Shown here: in pieces, positions 882-60,639 of the stretch
Layout: every line of letters begins with the position of its first letter
Position numbering within the stretch: the stretch's first letter is position 1
Origin: Eledone cirrhosa
Taxonomy: Eukaryota
Length of the DNA: 64,000 nucleotides
NCBI GenBank assembly: GCA_964016885.1
Contig: OZ024743.1
Location: 308,264,001-308,328,000 of the forward strand
Direction: 5' to 3'
Made by a program: the position numbers and the translations under genes
The notes under the pieces: model-generated
Told to the model about the DNA's origin: nothing
Database searches by the model: none
Seen by the model: the letters and a program-made list of their open reading frames with translations, nothing else

Positions 882-1410
882 GAAAAAATGAGAAATTAGA
901 AAGATTGAAAGGATGGACGGGGTGCAATTAGAAAGAATGTTTTTAGAGAAAAATAACAGGTCCATTCAAATTGTTGATGCTGGCGTTTTGTGTATGATAT
1001 ACTTTTTTTTAGAAAAGTGGATGATGAGCGCGCCTCATATATATATATATATATGGAAAACAAAGAATCAGTGATGCATCGGAACACAATTTATTATGTA
1101 TTACGGCGAACAGCTCGAGGTGCGATCTGTTTGTGGATCGAACCTGACTCTGGATTTGCAAGTTCCTCAGATACGTCTTGTGATTTAGAAGCAAATCCCC
1201 TTTCTGCTGGACTCCGACCCTTCGAATTTCTATCATCTGCCATCATCCTGTTTGCGCGGCCAGTCGATTGCTCATAGGAACAATGCAAAGGGCATACTTA
1301 AAACATATAAAAAGTATATAAAAAATACACATGAGGTTGTACATGAAAAAATACAATAGGCGGTACATAATAGAATACGCAGATAAAATACACACACTAC
1401 ATATATATAT

Positions 1411-1580
1411 ATTCATTTATTAGGGCTAAATAGTGAGTCTTGTTACTCTGGAGTTTCGCCTGTTTATTGCAGGTGAAATTCCAGAGTAACAAGACTCACT
1501 ACTTAGCTTTAATAAAATGAATATTAAAACTCTACTTCGGTATTGAGCACTCTTTTCTCTCAGCTGTCAACCGCATACAT
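1411..1580. mobile_element. PLE-derived fold-back, family B (hammerhead 3' halves head-to-head plus tail)
   Basis: Inverted arms of ~50 bp around 1462-1472 containing GAAA(C/T)TCCAGAGTA, then a tail with the ACTCTAC-TTCG-GTATTGAG hairpin. Homologous to 45550-45735, which keeps the CTGATGA core. Confidence 0.75.
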
Positions 1581-1910
1581 ATACATGTGTATGTGTGTGT
1601 GTGTGTGTGTATTTGTTTTGTAAGATTATTCATGTAAAATAGCGTGTTGAAACAGATATAATATAAACCAGTTTAGTTTCAGTTAGGTTTTATTAGTCAA
1701 GTAACTAATCAATTCATTGGTTGGTTTTCTAATCAGCTGGTTAATTGTCAAAACATGATTAGCATTAAGCTTCTATAATCTTTATGATGGCTGCAAACTC
1801 GTGTTTTTACATCCATTTTTTCCATAATGGCATGGGTTGTACATCATCATCATCATCATCATCATCTTCTTTTAATGTCCATCTTCCACGCTAGCATGGG
1901 TTAGATGAAC

Positions 1911-10343: not shown

Positions 10344-10532
10344 ATAGGAACAAGTAAGACCCCGACGGCTAAGCTCAAGCCGTTTCGACGGCTAATTCCA
10401 GAATTAGCCGTCGAAACGGCTTGAGCTCAGCCGTCGGGGTCTTACTTGTTCCTATTACCCACTCTACTACCCTAAGTATCGAGTACTTTGGTGTGTTATG
10501 GTCCACCTGGTTCCTTACCACATTTCCTTCGT
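10344..10532. mobile_element. PLE family A miniature fold-back (hammerhead 3' halves plus tail)
   Basis: 55-bp arms 10344-10398/10401-10455 with one mismatch, then a 77-nt tail. Flanked by (TA)n. Matches 59566-59697. Confidence 0.88.
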
Positions 10533-10588
10533 TATATATATATATATATATATATTTCTTTTTTTTTTTTTTATTATTTTCTTTTTTA

Positions 10589-13344: not shown

Positions 13345-14626
13345 TGAAGACATCAACTGGATCACTGATGGCAGCTCATGGGTGGATGTTGTTTACATTG
13401 ACTTTGCTAAAGCTTTTAATTCTGTGCCACACAAAAGACTTATGGCAAAACTCTCCGCAATGGGTGTGAAGGATGATCTTTTTAATTGGTTGAAGTCCTT
13501 CATTCTCAGTCGAAGAGAGGTAATCACAGTTCTAGGACAGCATTCCTCACCATATGAGATGTCATCTGGTGTACCACAGGGATCTGTTCTTGGCCCCCTT
13601 TTGTTTGTGGCATATATTAATGACATAGATGCCAACTTAAAGAATGCCACAGTACTGAAATATGCAGATGACATCAAGCTGTACCTTGAGATAAAAAGGA
13701 CAGATCCTGAACACTATAGATCTTGCTTGCAGTCTGACCTGCACACAATGCAACAATGGATCACAGACTGGCAACTGAAGCTGGCTGTGGACAAGTGTAC
13801 CACCATGCATTTTGGGATTAAAAACCCAGCGTCTACATACTCCCTCCACAACACTAATATCAAGAAGTCTTCTTGTGAATGTGACCTGGGCATTACAGTC
13901 AGCAGCGATTTGCGTTGGACAAAGCATGTCTCTAAAATTGTCAAGAAGGCCGAAGGTTTCTTAGCATCACTCAGCAAGACCTTTGTCAGCCACTCTCTAG
14001 CTATCTATTTAAAGCTGTATATAGCTATGGTGCGGCCACACTTAGAATTTGCATCACCAGTCTGAAACCCCTATCTTGCTCAGAACATTGACCACCTGGA
14101 AACTGTTCAGAGACGTGCAACCAAGTGAATACCCTCCATCAAGCATCTACCATACTCTGAATGCCTTGCTTCCCTGGACATGGATACATTGAAGCTCCGC
14201 CGTCTGGAAACTGACTTGGTAAACACCCCAAAAATTATTAACCATCTTACCAACAACAACCCTGAGTACCTTTTTGATTTCCATGTCTAACACATGTGGG
14301 CATGCCTACAAAGTCAGAAAACAGTACAACTCCCATGACTTTCAGAAACATTTTTTCACGCTCAGAGTTGCTGAAGCATGGAACAAACTTCCTGCATCAG
14401 TTATTAGTTGTCGAGACACTGCATCCTTTAAAACCTCTATGCTTCCTGAGATTCGCCAACACTACACCTAATATTCCCCCTCCATACACACGCACACATC
14501 TATATCATGACTCATACACTATTCACTTCCCTGACATTTGTATATTATTCTATGTACTATACATGCACTTTTGATGAGTTGTAGTACACCTGAACACTGC
14601 ACACAATAATTTCATTATTATTATTA
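13345..14626 (+). mobile_element. 5'-truncated CR1-clade LINE
   Basis: DVVYIDFAKAF, SGVPQGSVLGPLLF, KYADDIKL, DLGI and VRPHLEFASPV motifs, internal stops, (ATT)n tail. Confidence 0.95.
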
Positions 14627-15270: not shown

Positions 15271-15897
15271 TGATATTAAAATATTTCAACATAATTTATT
15301 TTAGAAATCTTTGTTAAGTATTGTTTTAAATGGTGGTATGGTATGGTCAGATAACACCCGAGGGAGTCATAGGGGTGCTGTAGTGGAACACAGCGTTTCT
15401 TGGGCATTTTTAAGCCTGGCAGAGCCCATCTTCTTTCCAGGTCTGACAGAATACGGCAGATTTCTTCCTAAGAAAAATAGGAAGTGAGAGAATGGAAGTA
15501 AAAAAGAGATATAGAGGAAGAATAGATCCCAGTACTAGACAAGTACATTTTTTTCTTATCACCCTTGAAAGGATGAAAGGCAAAGTTGATCTCAACAGGA
15601 TTTGAACTCAGAGAGTAGAGAGCTGGAGTGAATACCACAAAGCATTCTATCCAACATTCTCACCACTCTACTAATTCACCACCTTTGTTCTAAATAACAG
15701 CTTACTAATAACTAACTTAGTAATTTTATTGAATTCTTCTATTTTTTTTGTTACTTTCAAAATTAATTGAGCAGCTATTTTTCTGAATTGAGAGATCATA
15801 ACTCCATTAGAATATCTAAAGGGACAATCGCTGGATAGATTTTACAGGGAACACCAACTGGAAGGAGACCCAGGGGAAGACCCTGAGCAAGATGGCT

Positions 15898-29836: not shown

Positions 29837-31581
29837 CATCATCATCATCATCATCATCGGGTTTAGCGTCCGTGTTCCACGCTTGCATGGGTTTGGACGG
29901 GGGTTTTCCCACTTGAGGCAAGAGTGGTTGTCTTGCTCGCATAGGACTGTCTGGCGGGTTTTCTACAGCTGGATGCCCTTCCTAACACCAACCACATTTA
30001 CAGTGTGGGGCTGGGAGGTTTTTACCGTGTTGCCTACACGGCCACATTACAGCGTGGACTGTCTGGCGGGTTTTCTACAGCTGGATGCCCTTCCTAACAC
30101 CAACCACATTTACAGTGTGGGGCTGGGAGGTTTTTACCGTGTTGCCTACACGGCCACATTTACAGCGTGGACTGTGTGTTTTTTTGTCGTGACACCTACA
30201 CGATCTCATTTGTTTCGGCCTGGATGTTGTGGGACCAACATAACTTTACATTGAAAGGGGCGGTGTGGATGGGGTGGAGGTGGTGGGACGGGGGTGTGTT
30301 TTGATAGAGATGCCTACTGACTGTAGTAGGTTTTTACTTTGTATTTAGGTAAGGCGGGTCTTCTCTATTACTGAGTACCGCCAAAGGTCTCGGTCCAGTG
30401 ACATTGTCTTGGAGAGGTGTAAGCGTGTGAGGTCGGAATTTATCATGTCGTCCCAGGTTTTTCTGGGTCTGCCTACTCCGTGGCTACCGTCTATCTTTAT
30501 TGCCCTGCACTTTGTTATACAGCTGTCGTCTTTCATGCGCATCACGTGACCGTACCAACGTAGCCTTCTCTCGACTAAACAACATCTGATCCCTCTTATT
30601 TCTAATTTTTTCCTTAGTTCGTTTATGCTTTGCCGTTCACGTATATTACTATTGCACATCCAGCGGAGCATGCAAGCTTCGTTCCTCTCTAGTCTGCGTA
30701 TATCCAATGCACACAATGCCCAGGTCTCACTGCCATGCAGCATTGCTGTTCGTATGCAGGCATCGTATAACCTGCCTTTCATTTTTAGGGAGAACCCTCT
30801 AGCGGCTAATAGTGGTATAAGCTCTCTGAACTTTTTCCATCCAGTTCTGACTCTAGCTACTGTACTTTCAGAGCACCCTCCCCCACTGCTGATTTTGTCA
30901 CCCAGGTAACGGAAGCTGTCCACTATTTCTATAGAACCCTCTGCGCAGTTGAAGGAGCTAGTATTTTGTGGGCACTTGCTGCTACTTATTGCACCGGAGC
31001 ACCGGCCACATGTAAAATCTATGTTCTTAGTTAGCTTACCTGTGATCCCACTACATCTTTTATGCACCCATACTTTGCATTTGGGACATAAAATGGAGTT
31101 TCTACCTACGCCTTTCCTACACACTGAGCATGGCCATTTCCCAGAAGGGACCGCCGCCTTATTTTCTTTCCTACAAACTAGTACTTTAGTCTTAGCCAGG
31201 TTAATTTTAAGGCCTTTTGATTCTAGGACGTGCTTCCATGTTTGGAATTTCTTCTCTAGTTCAGTCATTGATTCAGCTATGAGCGTTAGATCATCTGCGT
31301 ATAGGAGTTCCCATGGGCAGCCGGTCTTGAACTCCTCTGTTATAGCCTGAAGGGCAATAATAAATAGTAGGGGGCTAAGAACAGAGCCCTGATGGACACC
31401 AACTTTTACGCTAAACTCTTCACTATATTCGTTGTTAATTCTAACCTTACTGACTGTTTCTTTATACATGGCTTGTATAGCTCTCACAAGCCATTCGTCA
31501 ACACCTAGTTTTCTAAGAGACCACCAGATAATGGAACGGGGGACTCTGTCGAAAGCTTTCTCCAAGTCGACGAAAGCTAAG
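29837..31581 (-). mobile_element. 5'-truncated RTE copy 2
   Basis: Open RT/C-terminal frame nearly identical to copy 1. TSD TATCTTCAT at 29828-29836 and 31582-31590. 112-bp tandem duplication in the 3'UTR. Confidence 0.96.
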
Positions 31582-32289: not shown

Positions 32290-33030
32290 TTAAAAAAGTT
32301 TATGCTAAGCAATGTGGACATGTTATTATGAGTTCATTTCTGTGATTCAAGAGCCTACATGGTGACAGTGATCTCATGTACCTCCGAAATACAAAGGACA
32401 CAAGACTTTTCACCTCCATCATAAGCCATCACAGAATTTATAATAGACCATTGTAGATTATAGGAGGTTTTAGATTTATTTAACAAAGAAACAGCTGTGG
32501 GGCTGTTTAGACTCTCTTTTTTAAAAGAATGTAAGTGGGAATTGTAACGAGTTTTAAAAGAGTTGGTGGTAGTGCCTATATAGAAGTTAGTCAAATTAGG
32601 GATATATACAGTTCATTTATACACTATATCTTTTTTAAGGCAATGGCTATTTAAAGTAAAACTATCAGGAATTCTACAGTTACATTCAGAATAAGATTTG
32701 GTATTATTGACAGATGTGAGGTTAGGTATGTTATTATGTGGTATGTAGTTAGTTTAAATTTCTATTTGCCCACTTTATTACTACTATTTAAGTTAGTGTT
32801 TTTAGTGTGGATAGACTGGTTTTATTTAGAGATGTTACAGTGGTTACTAAAGGCTATATAGTCAGCTAAATTAGGTGATGTAGAGAATGATATTTTAATA
32901 GTGTTTGATGATTAAGGTATGGTACCTATGTTCGGGTGGAAAGTTTCTTTCTAAGATGTCAAAAAATAACTTAGTGATATTTGAGGCCACATTTATTCCA
33001 AACGGATGATTGAACCACATTGTTTTGTGC
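32290..33030 (-). pseudogene. Decayed Penelope-like element: RT thumb, Cys-rich linker and C-terminal GIY-YIG (Hydra-clade-like)
   Basis: WFNHPFG, ECNCRIP...HCLKKDIVYK, FYIGTTTNSFKTRYNSH, CVLCISE and LLNHRNELIITCPH, with stops and frameshifts. Clade assignment is from memory of motif patterns. Confidence 0.8.
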
Positions 33031-33181
33031 CAGCAATTTTTATGTTTATTATATGGCTTATTATCAGCATAATGTAGAGGTTTAGAGCAATTGGATATTT
33101 GGTTTTCAGTTATGTATATTAATTTTATCTATTGGTTGGGATTTGTTAGTCACTACAGTGAGGTATTATAAAATTGTTTAA

Positions 33182-45549: not shown

Positions 45550-45733
45550 ATTTATTATTATTATTAAGGCTAAAAAGTGAGTCTGGTTACTCTGGAGTTT
45601 CGCCTGTTTATCATAGGATCATCAGATGAAACTCCAGAGTAATAAGACTCACTTTTTAGCTTTAATAATAATGAATATTAAAACTCTACTTTGGTATTGA
45701 GTATCCTTTCTCTCAGCCATCAACCACATATGG

Positions 45734-45735
<2 letters not shown>
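45550..45735. mobile_element. PLE-derived fold-back, family B, with hammerhead core on the minus arm (45588-45625)
   Basis: Minus strand CTGATGA TCCT-N9-AGG C GAAA CTCCAGAG TA. The plus arm restarts at GAAA and carries the tail hairpin at 45683-45702. Flanked by (TA)n. Confidence 0.82.
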
Positions 45736-45768
<33 letters not shown>

Positions 45769-47451: not shown

Positions 47452-48173
47452 AAAGGAATGACAACAATATTGTTAATGTTAATTTTTCACAATGTTTTGT
47501 AATGTTTGGTATGTTTTGTTGATTGTCATCTAATATGAGACACCAGTTCACAAATAGGTGAAATAATAAATGCATTCAAAGAAACACCAGATAAATTCAT
47601 TTCTTTTCTTCTACTTTTCATTTCTTCTGTAGCAGCTGTGATGTTGGATTTAGAGTGTTTCTTGTTATGAATTTGTATTTTTTTTTAAATTCTGTAAATA
47701 ATAAATCTGTCTTTCTTCCCACCGTTTTCATCTTCTAAAACCTACCTAAAATTGTTTTGGCTAATGTTGAATCTGAGATTTCAATGATATTTTTTGCATT
47801 AATTAACATTTATGTTTTGTGTTATGTTATAGATAAAAGCTTTATCTTTGTTTATATCCTGCCAATGCAATGCTTTGTATTCCCTCGCTTCTTATTGTTA
47901 AGATGACCATCCACAAATTTCTTATTTTTTAATTATTTCTAATTCATAACTATGATTTTTTTTTTTTTTTTTTTTAAACTCGTCAACAGCTTTTCTTTTC
48001 TTTTCTATGTATTGGTAAGAGGCTCCTTGGAATTTTCTAATGAATTTTTCTTTTAGAAGAAACCCAATAGTCACTATAAACTTCAGTAATGTGTAATGTC
48101 TTATTGTGCACCATCATTTTTGTTATCTGTAGTCAGAATCTACTTAATGTGTACTGAATAATATATATATATA

Positions 48174-48279
48174 ACGAAGGAGGTGTGGTAAGGAACCAGA
48201 TGGACCATAACGCACCAGAGTCCAGAAATAGCCGTTGAAACGGCTTGAGCTCTGCCGTCGGGGTCAAACATTTTCCTAT
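48174..48279. mobile_element. PLE family A miniature insertion in flipped orientation
   Basis: 48174-48221 is the reverse complement of the tail end. 48222-48279 is the hammerhead 3' half ending TTCCTAT. (TA)n on both sides. Confidence 0.82.
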
Positions 48280-51247: not shown

Positions 51248-51939
51248 AAATAAAGGGACCCTTATACGAGGTATAAGTGCGTATAAGGGTCCCTTTATTT
51301 CCGTCCCACCTAGTTTATTTTTATTATTATTTATTTTTTTATTCTTCATTATATATATATTTTTTTTAAAATTTATTTATCTATTCTTTTATTCACTTAT
51401 TTGTTTATTTATTTATTTAAGTATTTCTTTAGTCTAGCAATAGCGAGAGACTTAAGTCTTAGTAACCAGACTTTGCTTATTTTTTTTCTCTCTCAGTACT
51501 TTTTATAGTTTTACCCTTCATCGTTCTACTTACCGTTTCGACTTCCTCCCCCTCCCCAGTATCCTCTTTGACCTCACGCCCAGCTGTAGCCGGCACTACC
51601 AACGCATGAATGGGTCTACTCCACCCCCTCTCCCTTTTTCTCCTACCGGCAGGTTTAGCTACGCCTTCCCCCACCAATTTGCCATCACAGATTTACTACT
51701 AACATGTGATGTGACCAATCCTGGTGATTATCTCTTTGACCATATATGGAATTACCCCTTGATCAGCTCGGCTATTTAAATACCAGAATAAATGTTTATT
51801 CAGTACAGAATTAGCTGTCGAAACGGCCTGAGCTCAGCCGTTGGGGTCTTACTTGTTCCTATTACCTACTCTACTACACTAAGTATTGAGTACTTTGGTG
51901 CGTTATGGTCCACCTGGTTCCTTACCACATTTCCTTCGT
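51248..51939 (+). mobile_element. PLE family A pseudo-LTR with hammerhead (51754-51847) and a 33-bp inverted 5' piece
   Basis: Close match to 59035-59697. The hammerhead is slightly decayed (TTGATCA core, GTT site). Confidence 0.88.
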
Positions 51940-51940
51940 T

Positions 51941-53700
51941 CATCATCATCATCATCATCATCAACGTTTAACGTCCGTGTTCCACGCTTGCATGGGTTTG
52001 GATGGGGGTTTTCCCACTTGAGGCAAGAGTGATTATCTTGCTCGCATAGGACTATCTGGCGGGTTTTCTACAGCTGGATGCCCTTCCTAACACCAACCAC
52101 ATTTACAGTGTGGGGCTGGGAGGTTTTTACCGTGTTGCCTACACGGCCACATTTCAGCGTGGACTGTCTGGCGGGTTTTCCACAGCTGGATGCCCTTCCT
52201 AACACCAACCACATTTACAGTGTGGGGCTGGGAGGTTTTTACTGTGTTGCCTACACGGCCACATTACAGCGTGAACTATGTATTTTTTTGTCGTGACACC
52301 TACACGATCTCATTTGTTTTGGCCTGGATGTTGTGGCACCAACATAACTTTACATTGAAAGGGGCGGTGTGGATGGGGTGGGGGGTGGGACGGGGGTGTA
52401 TTTTGTTAGAGATGCCTACTGACTGTAGTAGGTTTTACTTTGTATTTAGGTAAGGCGGGTCTTCTCTATTACTGAGTACCGCCAAAGGTCTCGGTCCAGT
52501 GACATTGTCTTGGTGAGGTGTAAGTGTGTGAGGTCGGAATTTATCAGCTCGTCCCAGGTCTTTCTGGGTCTGCCTATTCCGTGGCTACCATCTATCTTTA
52601 TTGCCCTGCACTTTGTTATACAGCTATCGTCTTTCATGCGCATCACGTGACCATACTAACGTAGCCTTCTCTCGAGTAAACAACATCTGATCCCTCTTAT
52701 TTCTAATTTTTCCTGAGTTTGTTTATGCTTTGCCGTTCACGTATATTACTATTACACATCCAGCGGAGCATGCAAGCTTCGTTTCTCTCTAGTCTGCGTA
52801 TATCCTCTGCACACAATGCCCAGGTCTCACTGCCATGCAACATTGCTGTTCGTATGCAGGCATCATACAACCTGCCTTTCATTTTTAGGGAGAACCCTTT
52901 AGCGGCTAATAGTGGTATAAGCTCTCTGAACTTTTTCCATCCAGTTCTGACTCTAGCTACTGTACTTTCAGAGCACCCTCCCCCACTGCTGATTTTGTCA
53001 CCCAGGTAACGGAAGCTGTCCACTATTTCTATAGAACCCTCTGCGCAGTTGAAAGAGCTAGTATTTTGTGGGCACTTGCTGCTACTTATTGCACCAGAGC
53101 ACCGGCCACATGTAAAATCTATGTTCTTAGTTAGCTTACCTGTGATCCCACTACATCTTTTATGCACCCATACTTTGCATTTGGGACACAAAATGGAGTT
53201 TCTACCTACGCCTTTCCTACACACTGAGCATGGCCACTTCCCGGAAGGGACCGCCGCCTTATTTTCTTTCTTACAAACTAGAACTTTAGTCTTAGCCAGG
53301 TTAATTTTAAGGCCTTTTGATTCTAGGCCGTGCTTCCATGTTTGGAATTTCTTCTCTAGCTCGGCCATTGATTCAGCTATGAGTGTTAGGTCATCTGCGT
53401 ATAGGAGTTCCCATGGGCAACCGGTCTTGAACTCCTCTGTTATAGCCTGAAGGGCAATAATAAATAGTAGGGAGCTGAGAACAGAGCCCTGATGGACGCC
53501 AACTTTTACGCTAAACTCTTCACTATATTCGTTGTTAATTCTAACCTTGCTGACTGTTTCTTTATACATGGCTTGTATAGCTCTCACAAGCCATTCGTCA
53601 GCACCTAGTTTTCTAAGAGCCCACCAGATAATGGAACGGGGGACTCTGTCGAAGGCTTTCTCCAAGTCGACAAAAGCTAAGTATAGGGGTTTACTTTTAG
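51941..53700 (-). mobile_element. 5'-truncated RTE copy 3, inserted at the PLE/(TA)n boundary
   Basis: Same family as copies 1 and 2, with a 1-bp frameshift near 52710 and W>stop near 52657. Same 112-bp 3'UTR duplication as copy 2. Confidence 0.95.
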
Positions 53701-57563: not shown

Positions 57564-57594
<31 letters not shown>

Positions 57595-57606
57595 GGAACA
57601 AGTAAG

Positions 57607-57700
57607 ACCCCGACGGCTGAGCTCAAGCCGTTTCGACGGCTAATTCTGTACTGAATAAAAATTTATTCTGGTATTTAAATAGCCGAGCTTATCAAGAGGT
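57607..57700 (-). ncRNA. Type I hammerhead ribozyme, U3-A8 core variant
   Basis: ACCTC TTGATAA G...C GAAA CGGCTTGAGCTCAGCCG TC GGGGT. Confidence 0.82.
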
Positions 57701-58886
57701 AATTCCATATATGGTCGAAGAGATAATGACCAGGATTGGTCACATCACAAGTTAGTAGTAAACCTGTGATGGCAAATTGGTGGGGGAAGGGGTAGCTAAA
57801 CCTGCCGGTAGGAGAAAAAGGGAGAGGGGTGGAGTAGACCCATTCATGCGTTGGTAGTGCCAGCTACAGCTGGGCGTGAGGTCAAAGAAGATACTGGGGA
57901 GGGGGAGGAAGTCGAAACGGTAAGTAGAACAATGAAAGGTAAAACTATAAAAGGTACTGGGAGAGAAAAAAAAAAATAAGCAAAGTCTGGTTACTAAAAC
58001 TTAAGTCTCTCGCTATTGCTAGGCAAAAGAAATACATAAATAAATAAATAAATAAACAAATAAGTGAAAAGAATAGATAAATAAATTTAAAAAAAAAATA
58101 TATATATATAATGAAGAATAAAAAAAATAAACAATAATAATAATAAAAATAAACTAGGTGGGACGGAAATAAAGGGACCCTTATACGAGGTATAAGTGCG
58201 TGTATCGTACGGTGACGTGTCAACGGGGGGGGGGGGGCAACATACTAAAGAGACCACCACGAAATAATAAAGGTTTCTACCCCAATCACAGGGCCAGCAA
58301 CCACTCAGTGCAAGAAAGTAAACTAGTACGAGAATATAATTCAGGGTCCCGCAAAAAAATACTAGTGCTAACTCTAAGGTTACCGCCACGGAACAAAAAG
58401 TCTTATACAAGCTATATGAAAGATCGTAAGAAATAAAAGTAAAGAACGGAAAATTAATACAGAAACACACCCCCCACCCCACAAAAAAAAGAAAAAGAAG
58501 AAAGAAATACTGGATAAACGAGAAATTAAAGCAAGGATGCCACTAAGAAATATAGAAGGCACGGAAAAAAGGGACGGCGGTCGGAGAAGGGGGCGAGTAT
58601 CCAAAGTCTAACACCTCTGCTATAAAAAGCGGAGTCAGCCAAATCTATCATAGAATAGGGGAGGGGGTGGGGGTGCTGAAGCTACAAGGGACCGAGGGGC
58701 TACCTCGGGTGGGCGAGAAAAAGACGACGACAAGGAAAAGGAACTGGGGTAGAAGGACTAGGGAGGGATGGGGGGAAGGAGGAAATATAGAGGAAGCGAT
58801 AAAAGAATGTAAAATATCTTACGTCTCCATTGGCAAGCAGGGGTTACTCATTACAAAATAGGCAAGTGGGGTGTTATAGCCCTAGT

Positions 58887-59021
58887 CTAACCCCCCGGGT
58901 CATTATGGGGTTTGAGGGCGAGGTAGGTCCTACGTAATCGGTGTTTACATGCAGTAACCAGTTCATCTTTCTTGTTTAGGAGTTGGTCCGTCGAAAACAA
59001 CATTTGTAAAGTTTCCTCCGA
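58887..59021 (-). pseudogene. Last 44 codons of a PLE GIY-YIG endonuclease (not in the ORF track)
   Basis: SEETLQMLFSTDQLLNKKDELVTACKHRLRRTYLALKPHNDPGG* aligns with SEVHEI...LLNHRNELIITCPH of the 32.3-kb PLE remnant. Confidence 0.85.
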
Positions 59022-59511
59022 GCACTTATACCTCGTATAAGGGTCCCTTTATTTCCGTCCCACCTAGTTTATTTTTATTATTATTATTGTTTATTTTTTT
59101 ATTCTTCATTATATATATATATATTTTTTTTTTTTTTTAAATTTATTTATCTATTCTTTTCACTTATTTGTTTATTTATTTATTTATGTATTTCTTTTGC
59201 CTAGCAATAGCGAGAGACTTAAGTCTTAGTAACCAGACTTTGCTTATTTTTTTTTTTTTTTCTCTCCCAGTACCTTTCATTGTTCTACTTACCGTTTCGA
59301 CTTCCTCCCCCTCCCCAGTATCTTCTTTGACCTCACGCCCAGCTGTAGCTGGCACTACCAACGCATGAATGGGTCTACTCCATCCCTCTCCCTTTTTCTC
59401 CTACCGGCAGGTTTAGCTACCCCTTCCCCCACCAATTTGCCATCACAGATTTACTACTAACTTGTGATGTGACCAATCCTGGTCATTATCTCTTCGACCA
59501 TATATGGAATT

Positions 59512-59605
59512 ACCCCTTGATAAGCTCGGCTATTTAAATACCAGAATAAATTTTTATTCAGTACAGAATTAGCCGTCGAAACGGTTTGAGCTCAGCCGTC
59601 GGGGT
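59512..59605 (+). ncRNA. Type I hammerhead ribozyme, U3-A8 core variant
   Basis: Stem I ACCCC/GGGGT, core TTGATAA (59517-59523), long stem II (CGGCTA/TAGCCG, GAATAAA/TTTATTC), GAAA at 59578-59581, stem III ACGGTT.../...AGCCGT. Predicted cleavage after GTC at 59600. Confidence 0.85.
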
Positions 59606-60639
59606 CTTACTTGTTCCTATTACCCACTCTACTACCCTAAGTATTGAGTACTTTGGTGCGTTATGGTCCACCTGGTTCCTTACCACATTTCCTTCGTTAT
59701 ATATATATATATATATATATATATTGGGGAAATTGTTTGACCAGGGAAGAACTCTGCAGGAGTAGACTTCGAACGAAAGACAGCCCACCCTCGATCAACC
59801 CATCTAGCTCTGTGCCCTTCAGTTTTTAAAGACAGTAGGGTATAGATTTGGGGGGCTTTGGTTGCTATTTCTAGCACAAGTCAACATGGAAAGTCCTTAT
59901 ATGATTACTCAACAGGCTAGAAATAGCAGCCAAATATTTCTAAAACAATAAACTAACTCTCTTTAAATGCATATTAATGATCTGTGATACAGGGTATTTT
60001 CCAATCTTTCAGATCTTACCTCCTGGACCTTACCTTGAACTTATTTGATCTGTCTGATTTAAAATCATAATAGCACATTGAGTTTCTCGGTATATTGTTT
60101 AGTTAAGACAATGTAGATATCTCCATTTCAAAATGTTTCAAACAGATATCGATGAGAAATAATATGTTCTATCATTAATATGGTAGCTGAAACATTTTAA
60201 CAAGCTGTCCTCTGTATAAATCCAGACCAGTCAAATAACTGAAACCAAATCAGTGAAAGACCTTATTTATTTTTAATGTCATTGTTTATTTGCTTTGTTT
60301 AATATATCTATGCTACTAAAACATCACTGCATCTCTCCACCTTTAAACATTAACAATATGAAATTAGAAGAACCTTGCAGTTCCTTTCAAATACTAGGCC
60401 TCGTTTTCGCTAAGGATCTCTCGTGTCGAACATACAATACTAAACAGGGCTGTAACTACTTTTAACAGGCTGGCTCTTCTCTTCAACATAGTTGGATAAG
60501 GATAAAATTTAGTTGAAAGGAAATGGAAGAAAATGATTTATATTTAACAATTGAACCAAAATAATAATTTAATGGAGTGGGAATAACAGTAAACAGACAT
60601 TCTCTCAATCACAGACAAGAAGGGACTTTGGGACTATCC

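Follow-up and report, generated by a model that had tools for sequence, protein, structure and literature searches.

The window analysed here is a stretch of 64,000 nucleotides, part of C4 in a genome of 3.0 Gb, and it contains six insertions belonging to two hammerhead-bearing repeat families, A and B. The family A insertion at 57592-59700 consists of two head-to-head arms that overlap by 3 nt where they join (59022..59024); positions within the arms are counted from the family A hammerhead GTC (59598-59600), which is taken as zero. Its short-ended arm (57592..59024, minus strand) carries the last 45 codons of an ORF (59024-58887), the 3' UTR and the hammerhead, and ends at +20; the long-ended arm (59022..59700, plus strand) begins in the 3' UTR at -583, includes the hammerhead and goes on through an 80-nt tail to end at +100. 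The type I hammerhead motif lies at 59512..59605 (plus strand), with a U3-A8 core at 59517-59523, a GAAA at 59578-59581 and a predicted cleavage after 59600. A TATA-like box (59531..59538, plus) sits within stem II of the hammerhead, and an initiator-like site (59558..59563, plus) marks a putative transcription start at 59560 (-40). Two UAU sites on the plus strand, one short (59618..59620, +20) and one long (59698..59700, +100), coincide with the arm ends, which suggests that they serve in priming. The 80-nt tail (59621..59700, plus) runs on, in tandem copies, into the 5' UTR, with the ATG about 90 nt later. Within the tail, 4-5 nt past the short site, is a motif common to families A and B (59626..59649, plus), a candidate protein-binding signal. 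Stretches of (TA)n flank the insertion at both its short end (57571..57591) and its long end (59701..59724).

Two further family A insertions, 10344-10535 and 48171-48279, have the same plan, with two head-to-head arms whose outer ends are at +20 and +100. The former joins a short arm (10344..10398, minus, -34..+20) to a long arm (10399..10535, plus, about -38..+100). The long arm of the latter is tail only (48171..48221, minus, +50..+100), and the element segment that it represents does not overlap that of its partner, a short arm covering about -40..+20 (48219..48279, plus). An earlier, sequence-only reading of this DNA had described these three insertions as paired, opposed arms with their 3' ends outward, one short and one long, and that description is correct; it was also right that the two ends are fixed, but the spacing of 77 nt that it gave should be a TAT-to-TAT offset of 80 nt. 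The copy at 51248 does possess the long end attributed to it, but it breaks the rule: its long-ended arm (51280..51940, plus) faces (TCA)n and its left side (51248..51280, minus) is not a short end, being a 33-nt inverted, fold-back copy of the 5' end of the next arm. Family B resembles family A, as had been proposed, in that both of its window copies are short/long: one has a short arm at 1409..1470 (minus) and a long arm at 1469..1581 (plus), the other a short arm with a canonical hammerhead core at 45550..45625 (minus) and a long arm at 45626..45737 (plus), with predicted cleavage after 45641, the short site at about +37 and the long end at about +96. No relationship is seen between the flanks of the different insertions, six in all (best local score 7-13 for the three of family A), and the copies are not in general segmental duplicates. 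A few duplicates do exist (B241, B201 and L142); the last of these, on C6, is a segmental duplicate of the family B locus at 45550-45737, with flanks in common. A common interspersed repeat also occurs in the window as two 112-bp tandem dimers, nearly identical to each other, at 29944-30175 and 52049-52279.

On the evidence of its sequence, family A belongs to the Hydra clade of Penelope-like elements (PLEs). The hammerhead-bearing insertions had been taken for PLEs from the window, which for family A is borne out by a single ORF with a reverse transcriptase (RT) and a C-terminal nuclease, by pLTR tandems and by the hammerhead motif. The complete element, recovered from 20 long loci, has a unit of 3.6 kb. 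Five loci (L173, L175, L176, L177 and L184) contain partial tandems, where the sequence passes from the long end into the 5' UTR and ORF; an inverted 5'-truncated copy and a tail accompany these pLTR-forming arrangements. The L176 reading frame spans 801 aa between stops; it has motifs of the RT type and, at its C-terminus, a VIY..YIG block. Among 8,000 scored, homologs of the protein number 1,052 at E<=1e-20, and its Atlas neighbours, at 0.96-0.99, carry PF26215 and PF01541; a Pfam scan and a PDB sequence search with the family A ORF and its close homologs gave no match. The marks of the Hydra clade were taken from the accessible part of Craig et al. 2021 (PMC8557442). In family A, DKT replaces DKG, the CxCX5C linker is intact in L179, L182, L183 and L189 (one Cys is altered in L176) and the nuclease has no CCHH, its CxxC and CxH surrounding a conserved E and N. 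Most homologs have an N-terminal RWK motif, in a region that is frameshifted in the L176 copy, and the motif order, compared by eye, is that of Hydra-1_Amil. Two other identities were considered and rejected: a Naiad/Chlamys PLE, with an N-terminal nuclease and no canonical hammerhead, since the nuclease here is C-terminal; and a non-LTR retrozyme, with non-coding head-to-tail hammerhead units, since the short copies here are head-to-head with half a hammerhead.

An Rfam scan returned no hammerhead match, and the family A motif was instead read by eye and by its fold, as a type I structure of three stems (fold z -1.8) with the core UUGAUAA in 42/54 long copies. According to the available text of PMC3088659, a U3-A8 core is a natural hammerhead variant, and self-cleavage of the family A motif is predicted. 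Family B has a canonical minimal hammerhead. The tail motif that it has in common with family A could form a hairpin, which folds no better than shuffled sequences. No ORF adjoins the family B arms in the window or in 30 loci of 3 kb. Pieces of other PLE genes are present in the vicinity: the minus strand of the window at 32337-33098 has a degraded fragment of a different Hydra-type ORF, with 27% identity to the protein of family A, and the flanks of L177, L179, L183 and L190 have ORF pieces of further Hydra-type families near family A copies, one of which may be the partner of family B.

Exact-pattern matching finds 25,849 short-type and 22,494 long-type ends genome-wide. The ends are not scattered, 265/294 arms in all of the fetched DNA falling into the two classes (134 at +17..+24 and 131 at +95..+100); 20 end elsewhere, five read through into a tandem and four are cut by the edge of the locus. 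A (TA)n flank is present at 128/133 short ends and 125/131 long ends, the TA run being absent at 5 and 6, respectively. The TA runs that flank insertions are longer than the background (15 vs 7), and within such (TA)n target-site duplications are unreadable. A telomerase-like addition of TA at one of the two ends was considered and rejected, as there is no difference between them (median 11 vs 12 units, P 0.32, n=93). Other UAU triplets, at +44, +64 and +111, are not used as end sites, so that the choice of the sites in use must fall to geometry or to the shared motif; the sequence-only reading thus correctly had each strand end joining at a different fixed UAU, but UAU alone does not define these sites. 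Read-derived contigs also show loose ends at +100, +20 and -40, and their depth drops beyond about -46; they trace to no more than two samples within a single study, are possibly the source of the assembly and say nothing on expression.

These two ends are combined one of each. The unique pairs over all fetched DNA, a set obtained in part with a long-arm query, comprise 93 short/long, 3 short/short, 2 long/long and 9 unclassed (n=107). A random sample of 69 evenly spaced 20-kb blocks (1.38 Mb) has 34 pairs: 28 short/long, 3 short/short, no long/long and 3 unclassed. One short/long pair of this sample is a tandem duplicate and two of the short/short pairs are one duplicated event, so that 27 short/long and 2 short/short are left without duplicates; the third short/short pair lies inside a palindrome that takes in its flanks. 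In C1:1-23.45 Mb, the pairs that are head-to-head within 250 bp, among the matches listed, are 46 short/long, 1 short/short and 0 long/long (n=47; P 3e-13 against free pairing), and those within 5 kb, again among the matches listed, are 52, 1 and 1 (n=54); both lists were made by merging exact-pattern places, 100 short-type and 82 long-type. For family B, 14 of the 15 pairs among the matches listed (the first 100 of 779 and of 149 places) are short/long and one is short/short, with one end variant read as long. On such counts, which rest on the first listed places plus sampled loci, short/short and long/long pairs are not as common as short/long ones (46/47 of the C1 matches listed, 28/31 of the classed random sample). 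The idea that there are always two arms was, however, overstated: about 12/47 family A insertions (random sample, by eye), roughly a quarter, have a single arm, in some cases flanked by (TA)n at either side. Such copies may have arisen as one-arm events, or the palindrome may have been lost later.

The sampled loci contain several other arrangements. A third repeat end facing (TA)n occurs in the L257-L258 block (2560-2880), where there is a perfect inverted duplication around a short/short pair, and it recurs beside family A arms in L184 (near 7222) and in the L087-L088 block (near 13800). Tail-only inserts that start exactly at the short site (+20/+21) are found in the L047-L048 block (15805-15884), between two TA-rich runs, and at L025:572-652; the palindromic part of such inserts may have been lost. 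Insertions are often found within the (TA)n beside an older A or B copy, so that hairpins follow one another in chains (L001, L015, L022, L158, L159 and random blocks).

In short pairs, 115/154 arms have their inner end at -33..-45. An initiator-like TCAGT or TTAGT has its A at -40, and a TATA-like box lies 29-31 nt before that A in 50/50 long copies scored; the site was judged by the TATA/initiator promoter consensus. The same pair of elements has been noted in a rotifer pLTR (PMC3846280, accessible part). In 13/15 sampled arms that end at -40 the next base is G; a Fisher test of this is skewed, as neither C nor T can score at -41, and is given no weight. Counted over the whole genome, matches with a G before -40 number 2,929 and those with an A 567; another 14,048 have the template base, C or T, and the latter arms make -40 a mode rather than a wall. 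In the first 40 G loci the G does not derive from the partner arm in 22/43 cases and could do so in 21/43, with a G on both arms in three loci, and 10/15 sampled A residues before -40 are untemplated; scaled to the genome, the untemplated bases amount to roughly 1,500 G to 380 A. At L1 5' junctions an extra G marks copied caps (PMC11702581, in the text available). By the look of their sequences, the short copies likely run to a capped RNA start inside the hammerhead.

The putative start at -40 lies between the hammerhead core and the cleavage site, and so an RNA beginning there would have half a ribozyme: it would be without the 5' half (-93..-87) and unable to cleave itself at that place. With such a start, short family A copies need no circular or multimeric RNA. 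Family B arms often have the whole minimal hammerhead, so that their template would simply be uncut. The tandem copies of family A extend upstream past -40 in 5/5 cases, and full-length jumps would thus need read-through, multimeric or circular RNA, or else a template jump. In one case, L173, the inverted arm has 3 private variants of the upstream repeat and not those of the downstream repeat, which hints at a linear multimer as template. The template had been predicted to be uncleaved, multimeric or circular; uncut at the hammerhead site it does appear to be, but a multimer or a circle is unneeded for most copies, given where their arms stop.

The two arms of an insertion are alike in several respects. 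Their subfamily code is equal in 45/47 C1 pairs among the matches listed, against a shuffled mean of 15. In pairs with an arm beyond -100, both arms are long in 16/17, a count that leaves out long arms with no detected partner, and random-sample arms are long in 5/99. Private variants are common to the arms of one locus (5.4 vs 9.6 differences per 270 nt). As to 5' reach, in the 93 short/long pairs the short arm extends more than 25 nt further in 21, the long arm extends further in 8 and the two are within 25 nt in 64; the short arm is therefore not in general a fold-back copy of the long one. The junctions are varied, with 76 distinct sequences in 77 short pairs and an overlap of -1..+1 nt in 26/77; some have A/T-run inserts and some are palindromes or have a 4-7 nt overlap. 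An arm's own partner is its best match in only 21/58 short pairs, and gene conversion within palindromes, or subfamilies active at different times, could contribute to the concordance. Because subfamily, private variants and length class are common to both arms, and neither arm is contained in the other, the data point to a single template copied twice, as two cDNAs that were primed on the same RNA and then joined by their ends. In one long/long pair an arm (L111:1370-1495) has a peculiarity of its own, in that 9 of its 11 differences are T-to-C (sense), equivalent to A-to-G antisense, a pattern unlike that of the other 86 long arms scored; this could be A-to-I hyper-editing of a retro-copied hairpin RNA or a sequencing artefact.

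We consider it reasonably probable (about 0.65) that a (TA)n run is cut twice, that each DNA end primes the same RNA at either +20 or +100 and that the two cDNAs are then joined end to end. The enzymatic steps that we infer would run as follows. The nuclease of the element would cut both strands of the (TA)n run, and each 3' TA end would pair with one of two UAU sites presented by a single RNA, itself held by an asymmetric protein dimer. Two RT subunits would copy toward the 5' end of the RNA, the second enzyme displacing the first cDNA, and host end repair would join the two cDNA ends. For the short copies the pair of sites would be near the capped 5' end of a transcript that starts inside the hammerhead; the kb-long copies would use the pair carried by the downstream repeat of an RNA, tandem or read-through, that has not been cleaved. 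The almost complete overlap of 64/93 pairs means that a one-RNA scheme needs strand displacement. To our knowledge PLE RTs lack RNase H, and related RTs do displace strands. One RNA is the simplest account of the one-of-each pairing, although the five exceptional short/short and long/long pairs of the 107-pair set, the one short/short pair in each of the C1 and family B listings and the single arms speak against the scheme.

Alternatively, two RNAs from the same source locus could be used, one for each subunit of an asymmetric dimer and each primed once. Overlapping cDNAs could then both reach -40 with no strand displacement, which suits the 64/93 pairs and the double-G loci; a dimer is predicted for PAc (PMC11167929, excerpts), and a long/long pair, L015, has arms of different subfamilies. 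Such a scheme would, however, call for a second rule to forbid short/short and long/long, and a kb-long arm should often be paired with one that stops at -40, a combination found in 1/17; we regard it as unlikely. The accessible part of PMC3846280 proposes a self-priming model, and a fold-back of this kind, in which a single cDNA primed at +100 folds back, copies itself, leaves at the +20 TAT and anneals to the other (TA)n end, would give the one-of-each pairing and the identity of the arms directly. The palindromic junctions, those with a 4-7 nt overlap and the 51248 copy, which resembles a fold-back, are all in its favour. Yet it demands that the short arm lie within the long one, and the short arm reaches further 5' in 21/93 pairs; it fails for the non-overlapping arms of 48171-48279 and for the 1.4-kb arm of 57592-59700, many junctions have no overlap, and an extra G at -40 on both arms needs two run-offs. 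Fold-back may account for a minority of insertions, but as the general explanation it is very improbable.

Rolling reverse transcription of a circular RNA made by the hammerhead would explain why 5/5 tandem copies extend beyond the putative start and why tandem repeats within a locus have private variants in common, and related retrozymes do form circles (10.64898/2026.07.22.740005, available part). A circle has no 5' end, though, and the majority of short arms terminate around -40, an extra G being present in many, while the L173 variants fit a linear multimer (one case); we think a circular template quite unlikely overall, and it could apply to the long copies only. Finally, most copies are about 200 bp in length, and a ready-made 190-bp short/long palindrome might have been copied as a unit, or the copies might be duplicates (of which, as noted, there are some) or assembly artefacts. 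This is hardly credible: junctions vary from copy to copy, arms match by subfamily within a locus, kb-long copies follow the same rule, flanks are unrelated and the same ends appear in read-derived contigs. In keeping with the preferred double-cut, one-RNA scheme, a bolder version of it, to which we would give somewhat less than even odds, makes twin priming obligate. An asymmetric RT-nuclease dimer would hold one RNA with two fixed sites, both cut ends would be extended at once and ligated head-to-head, and, with the promoter lying in the hammerhead, the 5' ribozyme would never be whole, leaving only the 3' copy able to cut off the priming sites and so limit full-length jumps. If true, a single scheme would explain, for PLE clades in general, the tail, the inverted pLTR and why 200-bp copies are so abundant.

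The insertions described here clearly exemplify a known architecture, in a Hydra-clade family that is new, and add fresh evidence about its formation. The formation of the inverted ends and the one-sided tail of PLEs is treated as an open question in the accessible parts of PMC8557442 and PMC11167929. Here the young copies, which number tens of thousands, provide a direct read-out of the process: single priming per site, one template and a mapped RNA 5' end. Many of the 200-bp hairpins of TA-rich animal genomes would, in this light, be PLE run-off products, which repeat annotation may call MITEs or SINEs. In the text available, the octopus repeat annotation (PMC13282606) lists PLE families with no such end detail. 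A literature search, which left older subscription papers outside its scope, found no counted one-of-each rule, single-template evidence or cap signature for PLEs.

Compared with the Hydra-clade PLEs as presented in the available sections of PMC8557442, family A has the same ORF with RT and C-terminal GIY-YIG, the DKT, the CxCX5C, the absence of CCHH, a hammerhead, (TA)n flanks and partial tandems; it differs in its U3-A8 rather than canonical core, and its 3.6-kb unit exceeds the size listed there for the clade, generally under 3 kb. The inverted-repeat PLE insertions published in PMC8557442 and PMC3846280 likewise have, in the portions accessible, head-to-head arms, a tail on one arm, palindromic junctions and a TATA box plus initiator in the pLTR. 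Their one-sided tail is 30-40 bp, against 80 nt in family A and about 60 nt in family B, and is described as optional or frequent, whereas a one-of-each rule has been counted here; the arm geometry argues against the self-priming model of the second paper. A 34-bp repeat is known at the ends of Penelope (PMC2377424). In vitro, the lizard PLE PAc (Frangieh et al. 2024, PMC11167929, excerpts) has both strands cut and extended, with two internal starts that bound the tail and an uncleaved RNA as template; no difference in start site was seen between the strands, which counts against strand-specific starts here. PAc belongs to the Poseidon clade and its starts are within the ORF, while those of family A are in the 5' UTR, 80 nt from each other, and every insertion uses each of the two once. 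Lastly, L1 twin priming, as set out in the accessible text of PMC11702581, has in common with these insertions that a second DNA end primes the same RNA and that complete 5' ends have an extra G; the second L1 site is internal and not fixed, whereas here there is no poly(A), the two pieces overlap and both priming sites are fixed.
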